Assembly (NCBI GenBank): GCA_043813875.1
Contig: JBDRKP010000048.1
Location: forward strand, 1-10,966
Length of the DNA stretch: 10,966 bases
Direction: 5' to 3'
Source of the DNA: an archaeon
GTDB lineage: Archaea > EX4484-52 > B79-G9
The position numbers were made by a program. Numbering within the stretch: the stretch's first letter is position 1; each line of letters opens with the position of its first letter. Shown here in pieces: positions 3,001 to 9,000 of this stretch.

Positions 3001-6000
3001 CAGAGGCATGGAAGGCGAAAGGGGGAATAATATATGATTTCTGTATCGTGGGATGAGTTTTTTGAGCTCTCACAAAAACTTGCAAAAAAAGTGCAGAAGA
3101 AGCGCTTTGATTCTGTTGTCTGTATCAACAGGGGCGGGCTTGTTGTCGGGAGGATGCTTTCTGATGCTTTGGGACTTCCTTTAGGTGTCGTCAGCGCGAA
3201 GGCTTATGATGTCGGAAGGGCTGAGCAGCGCAAGGACGTGGTCGTTGATCGGAAGATATCTATTGTTGGCGATACGGGAAAGACGGTTTTGCTTGTGGAT
3301 GATATCGCGGATAATGGGGCCACTTTTTTTGCTGTCAAATCTTTTCTTGAGCATGATCTAGGGCTAACTGTTAACACGGCGACACTTTTTAGGAAGAAGG
3401 GTTGCTTATTTGATGTTGATTTTTTTGTGTCTGATGGCGTCGGCGACTGGATCGTCATGCCTTACGAGGCCAATGAGTTCAAGGGGAGTGGTAAGTGATG
3501 AAAGAGATGAGATTGTGCCGCGAGTTTTATTTTGATGCTGCGCATCGGCTGCCGGATTATGACGGAAAGTGCGCGAACCTGCACGGGCATACTTACAAGC
3601 TTGAGGTTGTGGTTTCTGGCAATGTGAAGAAGAAGAGCGGGATGGTTGTTGATTTTTGCGATATCAAGAAGGCTGTCAATGAGGCGGTTATCGAGAGACT
3701 TGATCATGCGAATCTGAATGATATTTTTTCAAATCCTACTGCTGAGAATATGGCGGTGTGGATCTTTGATGAGATCAGGAAGAAGTTGCCCGAGCTTTTC
3801 AGTGTGAAGCTCTGGGAGGGGCAGCATTCATGGGTGGAGTATCATGGTGAAGGTCGTTGAGGTTTTTGGTTCCATCCAGGGCGAAGGGATTCTTACAGGC
3901 GTCCCTACTACATTTGTGAGGCTTCTGGGCTGCAATCTGTCGTGCCGGTGGTGCGATACGAAGTATGCGAAGGAGGGGGATGGGAAAGAGATGAGCCCTC
4001 AGGAGATTTTGGGCAAGGTTAAGGGCGAGCATGTGTGCATAACTGGCGGCGAGCCGCTCATGCAGGATGTTTATGAGCTGTGCAGGCTGCTTTTTGATAA
4101 CGGGAAGAAGGTGACTGTCGAGACTAATTGCACTGTCTATGACAAGAGGCTTTCTGAGTATGTTTTTCTTTATTCTGTGTCGCCGAAGCTTTCAGCCAGC
4201 GGCGAGCGATATGATGAGCGCGTACTTCGGAAGTATCTAAATCTAGATAATGTCCAGATCAAGTTTGTTGTGTGCGATGATGATGATTTTCTTGAGGCCA
4301 GGGGGATTCTTGAAAAGTACCGGAAATCTGTAAGAGATAAGGTCATTCTCCAGCCGGATGGGATGTGTCCTCTAAATGAGTATCTTAAGAGGCTTTCGTG
4401 GCTTGTGGGGAAGGTGCTAACAGATGATGTGATGCTAAAGAATAATGTGCGCGTGCTGCCGCAATTGCATAAGGTCATCTGGGGAAATAAGCGGGGTGTG
4501 TGATGATGATGAAATGTGTCGTGCTTCTTTCCGGCGGGCTTGATTCTACCACCTGTCTTGCTATCGCGAAGAACGAGGGTTATGAGGTGTATGCGCTGAG
4601 TTTTGATTACGGGCAGAGGCATCGTGTCGAGGTGGATGCAGCGAGGGCTGTCGCAGAGAAGGTGGGTGTCGCAGAGCACAAGGTGCTTTCTATTGATTTG
4701 AGGCAGATCGGGGGTTCTGCGCTTACTGATGATATCGAGGTTCCTAAGGGGCGCTCTATTGATGATGAGATACCTGTGACTTATGTGCCTTTCAGGAATG
4801 CCATCCTTCTTTCGTTTGCGACTGCGTGGGCGGAGGTTGTCGGTGCCCGCGCTGTTTTTGCGGGGATGAATGCTATTGATTATTCCGGGTATCCGGATTG
4901 CCGGGGGGAGTTTCTTTCTGCTTTCGAGAAGGCGATGAATCTTGGGACGAAGAAGGGCGGTTTTCGGATTGTTGCGCCGCTTCTTAAGCTGACCAAGAAG
5001 GAGATTGTCCTGAGGGCGATCCATGAGGGGGCGCCGATCGAGCTTACGCATAGTTGCTATTCGCCTGTCGACGGGATGGCGTGCGGTGAGTGCGATTCGT
5101 GCCAGCTGCGGCTGAAGGGATTCAGGGAGGCGGGAATAAAGGATCCGGTGAGGTATCATGATTGATGTGCAGAGATCGGGTGATGAGCGAAATGTGGAGC
5201 TTGATAAGGTAGGGGTGAGGGATGTCGGTATCCCGCTGAAGATAAAGGATATGTCGCGGAAGTTCCAGCATGTCTCTAGCAAGGTCGATTGTTTTGTCAA
5301 TCTGCCGCATGATTTTCGGGGGACGCATATGTCTCGTTTTATCGAGGTGCTGAATAAGCACAGGGCGCGCGTGTTTAATTCGGATGTGGTGCGCGGGGTC
5401 CTTTCTGAATTGAAGGAGAAGCTTGATGCGGATTCGGCGCATATTGTCGTCAGGTTCCCTTATTTTGTCGAGAAGACTTCGCCTGTTTCTTCGAAGAAAA
5501 GTGTGATGGAATATGAGTGCGCATTTTTCGGGGATTTTTGTGAGAGTTTCTCGTTCATGATCGAGGTGAAGGTTCCTGTGGCGACGCTTTGCCCGTGCTC
5601 GAAGGAGATATCAGATTTCGGTGCGCATAACCAGAGGGGGATTGTGACTGTGCTTGCGCGATGCTCAAAGTTCGTGTGGATCGAGGAGATCATCAGGATG
5701 GCTGAAGAATCGGCTAGCAGTGAGGTGTTTTCTTTGCTCAAGAGGTCTGATGAGAAGTTCGTTACCGAGAGGATGTATGATAAGCCGATGTTTGTCGAGG
5801 ATGTGGTGAGGGAGGTAGTTCTTCGGCTCCGCAGGGATAAAAGGGTTTCGGGGTTCCGGGTGGAGTGTGAGAATTTCGAGTCGATTCATGCGCATAATGC
5901 GTATGCGTTGGTTGATAGGCTGTGAGTTCCGGTTCTTTGGAAGCGATATCCTTTTTAAGGTTTGTGTCTACTTATTTAATTGATTTTAGTGCAGGGGTCG

Positions 6001-9000
6001 CCCAGCTGGTCAATCTTATAGAAGCATGGCTTGCTATGCTTTTTTTGTGACTAGAGGCGCCGGACTCAAGAATACGTCAATGGCAACTTTTTGAGTGCTG
6101 AGCGCGCGTTGCGCGTGATGATTTTAAGAAATCCGGTCTCGTAGGAGTTCAAGGGTTCGAATGCGGCTGATGCATTTGTTTTTGTGTCGCCTGAATTGCC
6201 GAAAATCCCTTCCCCTGCACCACAACTTTCAGAAAGGTTGATCATCAGAGCGACCATAAAGCTTCGCTTCAACCTTCTAAAAGGTTGATCATTAGGTGTG
6301 TTTCGCTTTCGCTCAAGCACACTATTATTCTATATGGATAGCTTCGCTTTAGGTCACTTATTTGCTTTGTTCATACACATTGTTTTTTTGTTTTTTTGAG
6401 ATTATGGATGTCTGGGTTTTTTGCTTTTTGAAAGTATCTGGTCATGTGACACAGTTTGCTTTCCGTGATTCTTTGGACTCTTTCCTATCTGTTGAAATTA
6501 TATATATTATCGCGGATGTAGTAATATCATGGATCTTTTTCAGAGATTGCGGAACCTGTCTGTTGGTGAGACATCTTACAAGCACAGGAAGAAGGATAAT
6601 GTGCATCTTTTCGGCGGGGTTGCGGGTATTGTTTCTATCATATCGGGGATTGTCATGTATGTCATGGTATCGCCTCTTGCTGTGGCTGAGCATATCAAGG
6701 TGCTCGGGCTTGTGTGGGTTGTTTTCGGGCTGCTTGCTTTTTATGCGCTGTATGTCTTTGAGTACGTGGATCGGAGGAGAGGCGGCAGGATTCTTGCGGC
6801 TCTAGGGGTTATTGGTATGCTTGTTGGTGTCGGTTTTTTTCTCGGGGCTTTGATGATGGCGTTTTCAGGGATTCTTGCGATTAGATATTCTGTGCGCAGG
6901 ATTGGGCAGAAGATGTTTTAGGTGCTGTGTGAGATATCTATTTAGATTTGCGTACCTTTCTTGTTTGTATGAGATGTGTCGTGTGCGGGGTCGGAAACAG
7001 GTTGCGCGGTGATGATGCTGTCGGGCCGATTGTGGTCGACAGGTTGCGGGAGAAGTATGTTGATAGGGAGGATATGCTTTTTCTTGACTGCGGGGGGGCG
7101 CCGGAGAATTTCCTTTCGAAGATATGTGATTTTCACGCGGAAAAGGTGATTATTGTTGATGCTGTGACTCTTTTAGGGAGGCCGGGTGCTGTCGAGATGC
7201 TTGATGTTGATAGGATCAGGGGGATCCTATATTCTACACATCAGTTGCCTTTGTCGCTCTTTATCGGGTATCTGCAGAAAAACAGGGGTTGTGATGTTGT
7301 TTTTGTCGGCGTGCAGCCGAAGGATACAGGATTCGGAGAGAAGCTGAGTGATGAGTGCAGGATTGCGATTGGTGAGGCGGTCGGGGTTGTTTTGAAGGCT
7401 ATTTTGTAGAATCAGTCTTGTTATTAATGGCGTTAACTGTAATATCTGATAATATCAGTTATTAAATTTATTTTTGCATATTTTGTGCATGGATGTATCA
7501 ACTGTTTTTTTCCTTGTGGGCAGCATAATATTCATCGGGTTTTTAGGTACTTTGTTTTTCCAGCGAACGAAGGTTCCTGATGTGCTTTTGCTTATGGTTC
7601 TTGGAATGTTCATCGGCCCTGTCTTTCATATTATCGAGCCGACATCGCTTGAGAGCCTGTCGACGTATTTTGCGGCGCTTGCGTTGATCATACTTCTTTT
7701 CGAGGGTGGGCTCGGGCTGAATATATTCAAGGTCATCAGGGAAATCCCGAAAGCGACTGGTTTTACTGTGCTGATTTTCCTGTTCACGATCCTGATTACG
7801 GGCGCCCTTATGTCTGTGTTTTTTCAATGGAGTGTCTATCAGGGGATTCTTCTCGGGGCGGTTATAGGCGGCTCCAGCTCTGCGATTGTCATCGGCATAT
7901 TGAATAAGATCAAGACTGCTGATAGCGTGAAGACTTTGCTCACTTTAGAGTCTACTCTTACGGATGTGCTGTGCATTGTCGTTTCGATATCTATGATCCA
8001 GGTCATCCTTTCGAGCTCATTAAATTTTGCTGTCATCGGGAACAGTCTGCTTGGGGCGTTTTCAATAGCTGCCGTGGTTGCTGTTGCTTTCGGGATGGTG
8101 TGGCTTCAGTTCCTTAAGAATTTCGGGGGGTTTGAGTACGGCTATCTTCTGACTCTTGCTGTCACATTCCTGTTGTATGCGTTTGTCGAATCGATAAAGG
8201 CAAATGGCGCTGTGGCGGCGCTTGTTTTCGGGCTTATGCTTGCCAATGCGAAGGATATAGCGCTCATGTTGCGCCTCAAGGGCGATTATACTGTCAATCG
8301 CGATATCATCCGGTTCCATAAGGAGATATCTTTTTTTGTCAGGACATTTTTCTTTGTCTTTATCGGGATTGCCATTGATATCAAATCGATATTGGACGTC
8401 ACGTTTGTCGTCATGGGAGTTTCCGTGGTCGTCGGTCTTGTTGGAGCGAGGCGTCTTGGAGTGTATATGTATGGCATGTTTTCTGAGAATGTGTCCAAGT
8501 TTTCGCCTGTTCTAAATGCAATGATGCCGCGGGGGCTTGCAGCGGCTGTTCTTGCCTCTATCCCGATGTCAAGCGGTATTGAAATAAGCGGGTTTGTGGA
8601 GATTGTATTTTTTGTGATCATCGCGACGAATCTCATCACTACAGTGTCGGTTTATCGCTCGCAGGCGAGTGTTCCTGAGAAGAGCGAAAAGAGCAAGTGA
8701 TGATATATCTTTCTCTACCTTAAAAAGATGTGAATGTAATTAATGGATTATGGATATCTTGTCTGGATTCGGCGGGCTGGGGCTTGGGTTTGTCGGCGCG
8801 GTCCTCATCATTCTGATTTCGGCGCTGCCGCTTTATTTTGCCGTGAAGCTTCTTGGCGGTGAGGCAACTATTTTCAAGGTCCTTATGGTGAATCTTATTG
8901 CCGCAATTGTCGGCGCTGTTTTCAAGCTGCCTTTGATTGGTTTTCTGTTGCTTTTGTTTATCTATAAAGAAGTGTTCAAACTCTCCTGGTTTGGTGCTTT

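Follow-up and report, generated by a model that had tools for sequence, protein, structure and literature searches.

A candidate one-kink-turn, C/D-type guide for C34 in the 37/38 intron of an archaeal tRNA-Leu(CAA)

The tRNA-Leu(CAA) gene and the module in its second intron

The window, which is the whole 10,966-nucleotide stretch of archaeal DNA analyzed here (contig JBDRKP010000048.1 of assembly GCA_043813875.1), carries a tRNA-Leu(CAA) gene interrupted by three introns, the second of which contains an ordered set of antisense, box-like, and hairpin elements. The features are as follows, with the evidence in brackets; introns 1 and 3 have borders with a one-nucleotide ambiguity.

5991–6222, plus strand: tRNA-Leu(CAA) gene with three introns and encoded CCA (sequence reading, spliced fold, intron-free homologue)
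5991–6013, 6055–6070, 6131–6162, and 6207–6219, plus strand: exons (sequence reading)
6220–6222, plus strand: CCA encoded directly after the last exon (sequence reading)
6014–6054, plus strand: intron 1, at the D-loop/D-stem junction, outside the guide (comparison with intron-free genes; variable among relatives)
6071–6130, plus strand: intron 2, at 37/38, 60 nt, carrier of the module (sequence reading, comparison of relatives)
6163–6206, plus strand: intron 3, in the T-loop at about 59/60 or 60/61, outside the guide (comparison of relatives)
6064–6070, plus strand: target A31–G37, with C34 at 6067 (cloverleaf numbering and sequence)
6071–6087, plus strand: 5' part of intron 2, variable (intron folded by itself; comparison with a near variant)
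6088–6097, plus strand: antisense (guide) element UUUUUGAGUG (UUGAGU-N-NUGA invariant in 18/18 Leu modules)
6098–6101, plus strand: box D' CUGA, the non-bulged kink-turn strand (module alignments)
6102–6116, plus strand: C stem of the kink-turn, hairpin GCGCGC-GUU-GCGCGU with 6 bp of G+C and loop GUU (covariation)
6117–6123, plus strand: bulged kink-turn strand GAUGAUU (AUGA then U/A invariant in 36/36 modules)
6118–6124, plus strand: box C' equivalent AUGAUUU (Leu and Trp module alignments)
6125–6130, plus strand: splice-site strand UAAG-AA (sequence reading)

When the four exons are joined, an 87-nt class II tRNA-Leu(CAA) cloverleaf is returned by ARAGORN; the unspliced gene was missed by ARAGORN and by Rfam at gathering score. 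An intron-free homologue in another genome (G015) has an identical exon sequence. The three-intron gene with a 60-nt intron at 37/38, proposed in an earlier note on this DNA, is thus borne out by the sequence and the spliced fold. Intron 3 is absent from G002, G003, and G005, and its sequence is different in G004 and G006.

The order of elements in intron 2 (antisense, CUGA, G+C hairpin, and box C'-type strand) is as the note had it, and its claim that the antisense is complementary to A31–G37 and sets C34 against the fifth nucleotide upstream of box D' was confirmed base by base. U6096 to U6091 lie opposite A31 to A36 (6064–6069) in Watson–Crick pairs throughout, U6090 forms a wobble with G37, G6097 is mismatched to G30, and C34 (6067) is faced by G6093, the fifth nucleotide upstream of CUGA. 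The duplex therefore consists of six Watson–Crick pairs and one wobble and is A/U-rich; across the Leu modules it spans 7–10 bp, shorter than the 10–12 bp usual for C/D guides.

A kink-turn is defined, in the part of PMC4382518 cited, by a duplex, a three-nucleotide bulge, and then G·A and A·G pairs. As read from its sequence, the intron 2 module conforms to this definition and would offer a putative L7Ae site: the hairpin at 6102–6116 is followed by bulge positions L1–L3 (G-A-U, 6117–6119), the sheared pairs G6120·A and A6121·G are formed with CUGA (G6100/A6101), and U6122 lies opposite U6099. The box C' of the earlier note, UGAUGA, did not survive comparison. The nucleotide before GAUGA is C in five of the seven genus variants and is paired in the hairpin, so that the UGAUGA register leaves no 3-nt bulge, and AAUGA replaces GAUGA in 3 of 18 Leu and 4 of 18 Trp modules. 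Judged from the alignments, the invariant register is the hairpin (C stem), an R-A-U bulge, G·A and A·G pairs with NUGA, and then U, with box C' as AUGAUNN. Five of seven consensus positions (AUGAU) are matched by this box; the last two consensus bases are lacking, and with them the G-C pair to position 1 of box D'.

Of the features of an archaeal box C/D sRNA, the internal D'/C' kink-turn motif, an antisense with C34 at N+5, and the L7Ae, Nop5, and fibrillarin genes were found. As the note had recognized, only the internal C'/D' pair is present: no terminal kink-turn of box C (RUGAUGA) and box D (CUGA), and no second C/D pair, was seen in any of the 18 Leu introns. There is likewise one guide only, in place of two guides of about 12 nt set symmetrically between two motifs, and the 43-nt Leu intron of G019 is made up of antisense, kink-turn, and splice strand alone, with no room for a second kink-turn. 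The single kink-turn, short duplex, and shortened box C' count against reading the intron as a guide. The three protein genes, listed in the note, were matched by Pfam over the cut-off in this genome (fibrillarin, 288 bits; Nop, 186 bits; L7Ae, 101 bits). Nop5 is a protein of 508 aa with its Nop domain at residues 133–341, and it keeps the region between the N-terminal and Nop domains, where a coiled coil is predicted from sequence.

The arrangement exceeds chance expectation. A scan for CUGA, a flush stem of at least 5 bp, and GAUGA gave 6 matches genome-wide, where 20 shuffles averaged 2.15, and of the six only that in Leu(CAA) falls inside a tRNA intron; the tRNA-Trp module has a 4-bp flush stem and hence lies under the scan cut. 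A covariance model of the module hit exactly two places at E ≤ 0.1 in the 1.64-Mb genome, the Leu(CAA) and tRNA-Trp introns, and the arrangement was absent from the 15 other tRNA regions of this genome that were read through. Motif scans of the genome returned no canonical two-guide C/D sRNA.

Conservation in leucine and tryptophan tRNA introns

Within the genus, 14 loci yielded 7 distinct tRNA-Leu(CAA) sequences. The module blocks are kept in the six genomes in which the gene was recovered whole, as the note had reported, and also in one metagenome variant. A near-identical variant in contigs of DNA run X2 differs only in intron 1 and at 6075–6087, with no change in 6088–6134. Across the 42-genome phylum, the Leu(CAA) 37/38 module is present in 17 of the 33 genomes in which the gene was found, covering six of the eight families; these and the metagenome variant make up the 18 Leu modules, and the tRNA-Trp introns of 18 genomes bear the module as well.

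C34 is placed at N+5 upstream of NUGA in 36 of 36 modules (18 Leu and 18 Trp), with no indel between antisense and NUGA in any of either set. All 18 Leu modules consist of NUGA, a stem-loop of 7–19 nt, and R-A-U-G-A-U/A, and all 18 Trp modules follow the same pattern with a stem-loop of 8–75 nt. The U-G-A of RAUGA is constant, and in 7 of the 36 GAUGA opens with A in place of G. What varies around the fixed Leu core is the hairpin, the first base of D' (C or A; CUGA here, AUGA in the other families), the base at -1 (G, A, or U), and the rest of the intron, which is 43 to 108 nt long. The paired hairpin substitutions described in the note are borne out by covariation over 17 aligned modules, in which 91.8% of cells are paired and 19 cells are changed on both sides, compared with 6.0 ± 2.2 in shuffles, none of 500 of which reached that count. 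Since the anticodon loop is constant, the guide core cannot covary with it.

For the tRNA-Trp intron of this genome, the C34 geometry given in the note held and the "classical" arrangement did not: the intron has the same single-kink-turn module as Leu(CAA), with no terminal box D, and its upstream UGAUGA is missing from G003, G005, G006, and G007 of the same genus and from the other families. This non-conserved UGAUGA is the only boundary at the 5' end of a guide; elsewhere no box is present. Because Leu and Trp tRNAs both have C32-U33-C34, the GAG shared by their modules may reflect common descent of both in part.

Not every genome has kept the Leu(CAA) module. A degenerate copy is seen in G022 (NUGA to AUAG, RAUGA to AAUAAC), in family f4 the module occurs in tRNA-Trp alone, and Leu(CAA) has no 37/38 intron at all in 12 genomes of the phylum. 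Among those 12, the covariance model gave no stand-alone copy, with Trp-intron matches in some; loss without a stand-alone substitute means that the function is dispensable. The view that this genus gained the guide along with the intron needs correction, since Leu(CAA) introns in five other families bear the module as well. Ancestral presence followed by intron loss is the simpler history, and by sequence comparison the module is probably ancestral, with the intron lost in genera g2 and g3 and family f4.

Precursor pairing, competing folds, and function

The antisense pairing crosses the exon–intron junction, with compensatory change. In 17 of 18 variants the intron opens with a nucleotide that pairs with guide position -9 (12 U-A, 3 C-G, and 2 wobble), whereas in the spliced tRNA, where A38 would take that place, pairing is possible in just 13 of 18, and the C-G variants (family f2, genus g11) are mismatched to spliced tRNA-Leu(CAA). 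This suggests that the precursor, not the spliced tRNA, would be the guide substrate.

In each Leu intron the anticodon loop has two distinct antisense partners. UAAG/UGAG with a 2-nt bulge, toward the 3' end, serves the splice motif; the other, beside the kink-turn, is surplus to the needs of splicing. The bulge-helix-bulge motif of archaeal introns has two 3-nt bulges with a 4-bp helix between them and further helices on either flank. UAAG lies opposite C32-U33-(C34)-A35 to form the central bulge-helix-bulge helix CUCA/UAAG, with a C·A mismatch in this genus, and in families f2 and f3 UGAG takes its place to give a perfect 4-bp CUCA/UGAG helix. Drawn by hand, the motif comprises the anticodon stem and central helix with 3-nt bulges at both sites, the 3' one being A6129, A6130, and A38; no convincing inner helix was found. 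The guide duplex and this helix compete, as the note had cautioned, for they use the same anticodon-loop bases and are mutually exclusive. With the cis guide duplex forced, 12 of 18 variants fold at the minimum free energy and the other 6 stay within 1.9 kcal/mol of it; in all 18 the forced splice-motif fold is the less stable of the two, by 1.1–7.8 kcal/mol. When introns are folded alone, the 5' part of intron 2 in relatives contains an anticodon-loop look-alike (CAUUCAA, CUUAAGA) able to pair with the antisense; in this genome only UCAA (6077–6080) can do so.

The 37/38 intron of tRNA-Leu(CAA) is probably a natural one-kink-turn C/D-type guide for Cm34 that acts on the precursor. We infer that L7Ae would bind the kink-turn, built of NUGA (box D'), the short hairpin as canonical stem, the R-A-U bulge, and GA-U (the shortened box C', AUGAUNN), and would recruit Nop5–fibrillarin. 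The 7–10 nt just upstream of box D' would pair in cis, within one precursor, with A31–G37 and with the one or two nucleotides that open the intron, the predicted preferred fold of the naked precursor RNA, and would set the ribose of C34 at N+5 for fibrillarin to make Cm34. Because UAAG/UGAG draws on the same loop bases, guide pairing would exclude the bulge-helix-bulge fold, and the RNA would have to switch after methylation, before the splicing endonuclease cuts. The excised intron might be active in trans too. The proposal that tRNA-Leu(CAA) brings its own methylation guide thus stands as to kink-turn and N+5 geometry, with methylation itself predicted.

It is unlikely, though worth weighing, that kink-turn and antisense act as a switch in folding or splicing with no methylation involved. 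L7Ae, by itself or together with further proteins, would then sit on the kink-turn, and the antisense would keep the anticodon loop in a long helix, shielding it or delaying the splice motif and thereby timing or controlling precursor splicing. The mutually exclusive folds, with the guide fold predicted to be the more stable in every variant, would suit such a switch, as would the 5' parts of the genus introns, which can mask the antisense and so provide three alternative pairings; one kink-turn suffices for L7Ae, and the junction pairing shows the precursor as partner. A mere switch, however, would not need the exact N+5 spacing from NUGA, other long introns of this genome lack the module, and tRNA-Trp has the module too, at a position homologous to that of a proven Cm34 guide in euryarchaeal introns, according to the cited part of PMC11408192. 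Still less probable is that each module makes up one half of a bipartite particle whose other kink-turn is supplied in trans by a further precursor or an excised intron (Leu and Leu, or Leu and Trp), with a Nop5 dimer as bridge; this is a sub-case of the guide for Cm34, not a true alternative to it. Nop5 retains the region of its predicted coiled coil, two tRNA species bear the module, and half-mer RNAs have been crystallized as particles with two RNA pieces (PMC6239191, in the text cited), but no sequence pairing between the introns was found and the f4 genomes have the Trp module alone. It is very improbable that the module has no function today, whether as the decaying remains of a formerly complete C/D sRNA or as a chance likeness, for although one copy is degenerate and 12 genomes have lost the intron, the core is invariant in six families while the flanks diverge beyond alignment, the hairpin covaries, the near variant has changed solely outside the module, and the model finds only two places in the genome.

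Comparison with known systems

The euryarchaeal tRNA-Trp(CCA) intron guide has all four boxes. In the parts cited of PMC4090602, PMC11408192, and PMC7994747, this guide (Haloferax volcanii; Pyrococcus sR50) resembles the module in its 37/38 intron, in an antisense to its own loop beside a D-type box with C34 at N+5, in competition between guide pairing and splice motif, and in having the precursor as substrate; guidance of Cm34 by the Haloferax tRNA-Trp intron is proven there (PMC4090602, PMC11408192). It is described, in the same texts, as a full box C/D RNA for two sites, C34 and U39, whereas this lineage has one kink-turn, one guide, a shortened box C', and tRNA-Leu(CAA) as host; the Trp introns across this phylum are reduced in the same way.

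Nanoarchaeum equitans is by convention assigned to the DPANN group, to which the lineage of this genome presumably belongs too. The elongator tRNA-Met of N. equitans yields a 66-nt intron RNA that is abundant in RNA-seq (Randau 2012; PMC3491384, in part) and that, by description only, resembles the D'-hairpin-C' order: it has one box D, one mutated box C, and a hairpin of six consecutive G-C pairs in a non-Trp host, which is Met rather than Leu(CAA). In Pyrococcus, according to the portions of PMC7994747 and PMC7668247 cited, C34 is a predicted C/D target in four tRNAs, Trp and Leu(CAA) among them, and the module of this genome is confined to the introns of these two. Methylation at C34 of tRNA-Leu(CAA), Leu(UAA), and Met is predicted there by the same rule from stand-alone sRNAs, which are independent genes with two kink-turn motifs, unlike the single kink-turn in the target's own intron seen here; in the part of PMC7668247 cited, Leu(CAA) C34 methylation was undetected in the tRNAs analyzed.

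A related design is the Pyrococcus horikoshii "hemi" box C/D RNP of Hardin and Batey (2006), with one C/D motif and one guide; in the sections of PMC1635284 cited, two-part architecture is called absolutely conserved in nature, the engineered single-site complex is active in vitro with loss of site specificity, and earlier such constructs are poorly active. That complex is artificial, whereas the modules here are natural and would act, if at all, on a target tethered in cis. The same nucleotide of eukaryotic tRNA-Leu(CAA) is modified to m5C34 by Trm4/NSUN2, which needs a 37/38 intron that extends the anticodon stem (PMC11408192, as cited in part); this is a protein-only enzyme that methylates the base, not the ribose, with no kink-turn.

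Tentatively, the phylum might run its C/D machinery on natural "half-mer" cis guides in tRNA-Trp and Leu(CAA) introns, the tether replacing the second kink-turn for specificity, the guide duplex being the default fold, and Cm34 gating splicing through release of that duplex. Because no ordinary two-guide sRNA appeared in the motif scans of this genome, the lineage may have kept these intron modules as its main, or even sole, RNA guides. Comparative support for the Leu(CAA) module is much broader than the six genomes of one genus in the earlier note. The minimal one-kink-turn device occurs in leucine and tryptophan tRNA introns across the whole lineage.

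Anatomy and register of the tRNA-Leu(CAA) intron

The tRNA-Leu(CAA) gene is interrupted by three introns. When its exons were spliced by script, the product was folded by ARAGORN into an 87-nt class II tRNA-Leu(CAA), and the exon sequence was identical to that of the intron-free gene of a related genus; the unspliced window gave no match with ARAGORN or, at the gathering score, with Rfam. The second intron carries an arrangement referred to here as the module: an antisense stretch, NUGA (box D'), a hairpin and RAUGA (the box C' side).

Features of the tRNA-Leu(CAA) gene (contig positions, plus strand; read from the sequence unless stated)
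5991-6222: gene with three introns and an encoded CCA after the last exon
5991-6013, 6055-6070, 6131-6162, 6207-6219: exons (spliced by script; ARAGORN fold of the product)
6071-6130: intron 2, 60 nt, between G37 and A38
5' of 6088: variable 5' part of intron 2, AAUACGUCAAUGGCAAC
6088-6097: antisense UUUUUGAGUG
6098-6101: CUGA (box D')
6102-6116: hairpin GCGCGC-GUU-GCGCGU
6117-6123: GAUGAUU
6124-6130: U-UAAG-AA, 3' end of intron 2

Bases A31 to A36 of the tRNA are paired with U6096 to U6091, G37 is wobble-paired with U6090, and G30 lies opposite G6097. C34 (6067) thereby faces G6093, the fifth base upstream of CUGA (N+5, the expected methylation site), as described in an earlier note, whose account of the intron is confirmed from the sequence. 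The conserved blocks that it had reported from six genomes were also recovered: the six genomes of the genus with the whole gene, together with one metagenome variant, provide seven distinct sequences from 14 loci, in all of which UUGAGU(G/A)CUGA and GAUGAUUUUAAGAA are unchanged, the hairpin changes are compensatory and the 5' part of the intron is divergent. No RNA run was listed for positions 5800-6500; examination of four DNA runs for this stretch yielded one near variant, in contigs with 95-99% identity, which differs in intron 1 and at 6075-6087 and nowhere in 6088-6134.

The earlier note had read box C' as UGAUGA, a register that could not be upheld. The base before GAUGA is C in five of the seven genus variants and pairs with the G after CUGA in all seven, so that the hairpin is flush with both motifs. 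A standard kink-turn needs a three-nucleotide bulge (PMC4382518), and the UGAUGA register leaves none. The relatives decide between the registers: AAUGA, which breaks the UGAUGA reading and is neutral for the alternative, replaces GAUGA in 7 of 36 modules (3 of the 18 from Leu, 4 of the 18 from Trp). In the predicted kink-turn, the canonical stem is formed by the hairpin and the bulge by G-A-U, and the second GA is matched with the GA of CUGA in G.A/A.G pairs; the U that follows lies opposite the U of CUGA. Box C' is accordingly read as AUGAUNN, which matches five of seven consensus positions. Box D' is CUGA in this genus (g1), AUGA in most other families and, in the f8 Trp introns, ACGA.

The stem itself shows covariation. 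Over 17 aligned modules, 91.8% of the cells of the 6-bp stem are paired, and four pairs show changes on both sides (19 cells versus 6.0 +/- 2.2 in shuffles, with 0 of 500 as high); shifting the stem partner by one column reduces pairing to 13-14%. A reversed kink-turn, with the hairpin as non-canonical stem, was discarded by hand, as the supposed canonical stem is unpaired. The third intron (T-loop, 6163-6206) contains CUGAUGC and CCUGA, 17 nt apart. These boxes were rejected as a module because they give no kink-turn with a proper stem and because the intron is missing in three relatives (G002, G003, G005) and has other sequence in two (G004, G006).

Occurrence and history of the module

In this genome, a covariance model (R1) built from 17 modules had two matches with E <= 0.1, namely intron 2 of the Leu gene (51.7 bits) and the tRNA-Trp gene's intron (33.4 bits). 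With a simpler pattern, CUGA followed by a flush stem of at least 5 bp and GAUGA, six matches were found in the genome versus a mean of 2.15 in 20 shuffles. The arrangement is present in none of 15 other tRNA regions read in this genome, and none of the 30 places outside ORFs with NUGA, a flush stem and RAUGA carries the antisense. Beyond tRNA introns, the matches of R1 were few, weak and unrelated, lying in a G022 repeat and in coding-like sequence of G008 and G031, and no stand-alone copy of the module was found by these crude scans.

The second carrier is the following gene.

Contig 42, about 33047-33299, minus strand: tRNA-Trp(CCA) gene (L044, L045), with an intron of ~200 nt containing a one-kink-turn module

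Its intron contains, in order, UGAUGA, a 17-nt stretch whose end is CUGGAGCU, CUGA, a hairpin GCGC...GCGC and GAUGAUU, with no box D after it. The upstream UGAUGA is found neither in G003, G005, G006 and G007 of the same genus nor in any other family read. By contrast with the earlier note, which called this intron classical, it is thus predicted to be a device with a single kink-turn like that of Leu(CAA). The order guide-NUGA-hairpin-RAUGAU was found in Trp introns of 18 genomes from seven families, always with C34 at N+5. Bases C32-U33-C34 are common to the two tRNAs, and one module may plausibly have arisen from the other, because their antisenses, UUGAGU (Leu) and UGGAGC (Trp), differ only at two bases, facing positions 35 and 31. 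Downstream of the Trp module, a CGGU(A/U)UUCCC stretch is conserved within the genus. The Trp genes of G019 (L092, family f5) and G021 (L093, family f7) contain the module, with a 5' exon that is distant or was unrecognised by eye; the T-arm of the G021 gene is broken by further introns.

Searches at phylum, class and order level returned the same 42 genomes, and the distribution covers those 42. The Leu(CAA) anticodon arm was located by the pattern GGCGNNGGACUCAAR, which matched in 33 of them; the assemblies are 57-96% complete, so that "not found" does not equal "absent".

State of the 37/38 intron of tRNA-Leu(CAA) in the 33 genomes (G, genome; g, genus; f, family)
Intact module: 17 (g1, 6; f2, 5 of 5; f3, 3 of 3; f5, 1; f7, 1; f8, 1)
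Degenerate copy of the module: 1 (G022)
Unrelated or short intron: 3 (G012, G014, G025)
Intron absent: 12 (g3, 4; G008; f4, 7)

No match to the pattern was found in family f6. The occurrence of intact modules in f2, f3, f5, f7 and f8 runs against the earlier proposal that the guide came with the intron in this genus, and in the simplest history the module is old and disappeared along with the intron, rather than being gained in g1. In G022 (L119, contig 25, 28409-28623), the antisense is kept, NUGA is AUAG and RAUGA is AAUAAC, while the tRNA has A rather than G at position 37; this decayed module may be a natural loss-of-function copy. Within genus g2, G012 (L106) and G014 (L108) have a 37/38 intron of ~41 nt, unrelated to the module and with no antisense or kink-turn, and a third genome, G008, has no intron at this position.

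Target pairing and competing folds

Among 18 Leu variants, UUGAGU-N-NUGA is invariant, whereas the remainder of the intron drifts and its length ranges from 43 to 108 nt. The target duplex comprises 7-10 bp and extends into the intron. The base at guide position -9 pairs with the intron's first base in 17 of the 18 (12 U-A, 3 C-G and 2 wobble pairs), whereas pairing with A38 of the spliced tRNA is possible in 13, the three C-G variants being mismatched there; in f3, guide position -10 is also paired with the second intron base. Since the spliced tRNA fits fewer variants, the pattern indicates that the guide's partner is the precursor, as in Haloferax pre-tRNA-Trp (PMC4090602).

All 18 introns also end in a separate 4-nt strand with two bulge bases (UAAG in genus g1, UGAG in f2 and f3), which forms the splice motif's central helix with C32-A35. 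Folding was compared with nearest-neighbour energies, in which proteins and the kink are ignored. When the cis guide duplex is forced, the fold has the minimum free energy in 12 of the 18 variants and lies within 1.9 kcal/mol of it in the other six, and a forced splice motif (anticodon stem, central helix and bulges) is costlier than the guide fold by 1.1-7.8 kcal/mol in all 18. In genus g1, the 5' part of the intron contains a look-alike of the anticodon loop (CAUUCAA, CUUAAGA, GCAUUCAAG) that can cover the antisense when the intron is free; in this genome, UCAA alone has this ability. A single antisense thus takes part in mutually exclusive pairings, which fits, without proving it, an order in which the guide fold would precede the splice fold.

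The Leu module is real and conserved. With C34 at N+5 and a guide that reaches into the intron, its function is probably that of a Cm34 guide with a single kink-turn, acting on the precursor. The main rival, a protein-bound folding or splicing switch that operates without methylation, would also use mutually exclusive folds; it appears unlikely. The separate splice strand in every intron makes the antisense beside the kink-turn surplus for splicing. For the antisense as partner in the central helix of the splice motif there is no place, as the 3' splice site needs an adjacent strand and this is separately present in 18 of 18.

Genomic setting, known guides and implications

The methylation machinery named in the earlier note (fibrillarin, Nop5 and L7Ae) is encoded in this genome. 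The following Nop5 gene was located.

Contig 23 (locus L032), 1105-2631: Nop5, 508 aa, Nop domain at 133-341, repeat-rich tail

After the Nop domain, ~150 residues of low complexity contain three QYSTPGRQSQPSQGRYKE-like repeats and a basic end, a tail of a kind not usual in archaeal Nop5 and loosely similar to the charged tails of eukaryotic Nop56/58. An exact-box search for C-guide-D'-spacer-C'-guide-D found no match in the genome, and RUGAUGA...CUGA occurs at 18 places outside long ORFs, none with correctly spaced internal boxes. UGAUGA-N9-20-CUGA gave 182 matches versus about 41 in mononucleotide shuffles; most of the 182 fall within coding sequence, and they were uninformative. No ordinary two-guide C/D sRNA was therefore found by these crude exact-box scans, which do not prove its absence. 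On the plus strand of contig 42 (22836-22882), ~60 nt downstream of tRNA-Ile(UAU) and free of long ORFs, GUGAUGA-36 nt-CUGA may represent a small RNA that is linked to the tRNA and has one C/D pair.

Upstream of the Leu(CAA) gene and on the same strand (4500-5925) lie genes for QueC and a FolE2-type GTP cyclohydrolase, which make the 7-deazaguanine precursor of archaeosine; downstream are small ORFs, a hydrogenase maturation protease and a Na+/H+ exchanger. Two copies of a AACCUUCAGAAAGGUUGAUCAUCAGAGCGACC-like repeat, consisting of a hairpin and GAUCAUCAGAGC, immediately follow the tRNA on its 3' side (6220-6330), and BLAST found 12 further matches to this repeat on 10 contigs of the genome. 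Several copies lie less than ~50 nt from the 3' ends of other tRNA genes, in both orientations (contig 12, 19604-19635; contig 43, 11456-11488; contig 62, 6053-6090). The repeat is joined to many different flanks in DNA-run contigs and is thus dispersed; it also follows the Leu genes of relatives, and its opposite strand reads UGAUGA-9 nt-CUGA.

The assembly measures 1.64 Mb (43.8% G+C), and its tRNA genes often contain one to three introns, some non-canonical (D-loop, T-loop). ARAGORN, with introns allowed, found 16 tRNAs, and the Rfam tRNA model gave 28 matches with E <= 1, of which 25 exceeded the gathering score; with such yields, much of the tRNA set would escape standard annotation.

C34 of tRNA-Leu(CAA) is modified by protein enzymes in bacteria and eukaryotes. 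According to a 2024 review, the eukaryotic modification is intron-dependent, and the tRNA-Trp intron is the sole example given there of an intron guide for its own tRNA (PMC11408192); it was called unique in 2014 (PMC4090602). The elongator tRNA-Met of Nanoarchaeum equitans has a 66-nt intron from which a stable RNA arises; this RNA carries a box D, a mutated box C and six consecutive G-C pairs and was proposed as a second self-guide case (PMC3491384). Compared by description only, it is the nearest precedent for the Leu module. In three species of Pyrococcus, four sRNAs target C34, in tRNA-Leu(CAA), Leu(UAA), Met and Trp, and for Trp the guide is the intron (PMC7994747); Cm34 of P. furiosus Leu(CAA) was predicted and not detected among the tRNAs analysed (PMC7668247). 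No Leu(CAA) intron guide or natural one-kink-turn guide was found in the literature covered, outside which lie most subscription journals and the primary 2001 paper.

The Leu module falls outside the canonical two-motif box C/D sRNA family, as two of that family's defining features, a terminal kink-turn of box C and box D and a pair of guides of about 12 nt, were looked for and not found; judged by sequence, it would act like the D'/C' half of such an RNA. A single-site C/D complex was active and non-specific in vitro, and the bipartite architecture was called absolutely conserved in natural complexes and required for site specificity (PMC1635284), a view with which a one-kink-turn module conflicts. 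The natural introns of 43-60 nt would offer substrates for asking if cis tethering substitutes for the second motif. Because tRNA finders overlook such genes, the module is also a useful annotation landmark. Leu(CAA) would be a further tRNA with a self-guide intron device, conserved across a phylum-level lineage and reduced to one kink-turn, in which wobble methylation would be tied to splicing via mutually exclusive folds. It would represent a third route to C34 modification of tRNA-Leu(CAA), besides the stand-alone sRNAs of Pyrococcus and the protein enzymes of bacteria and eukaryotes.
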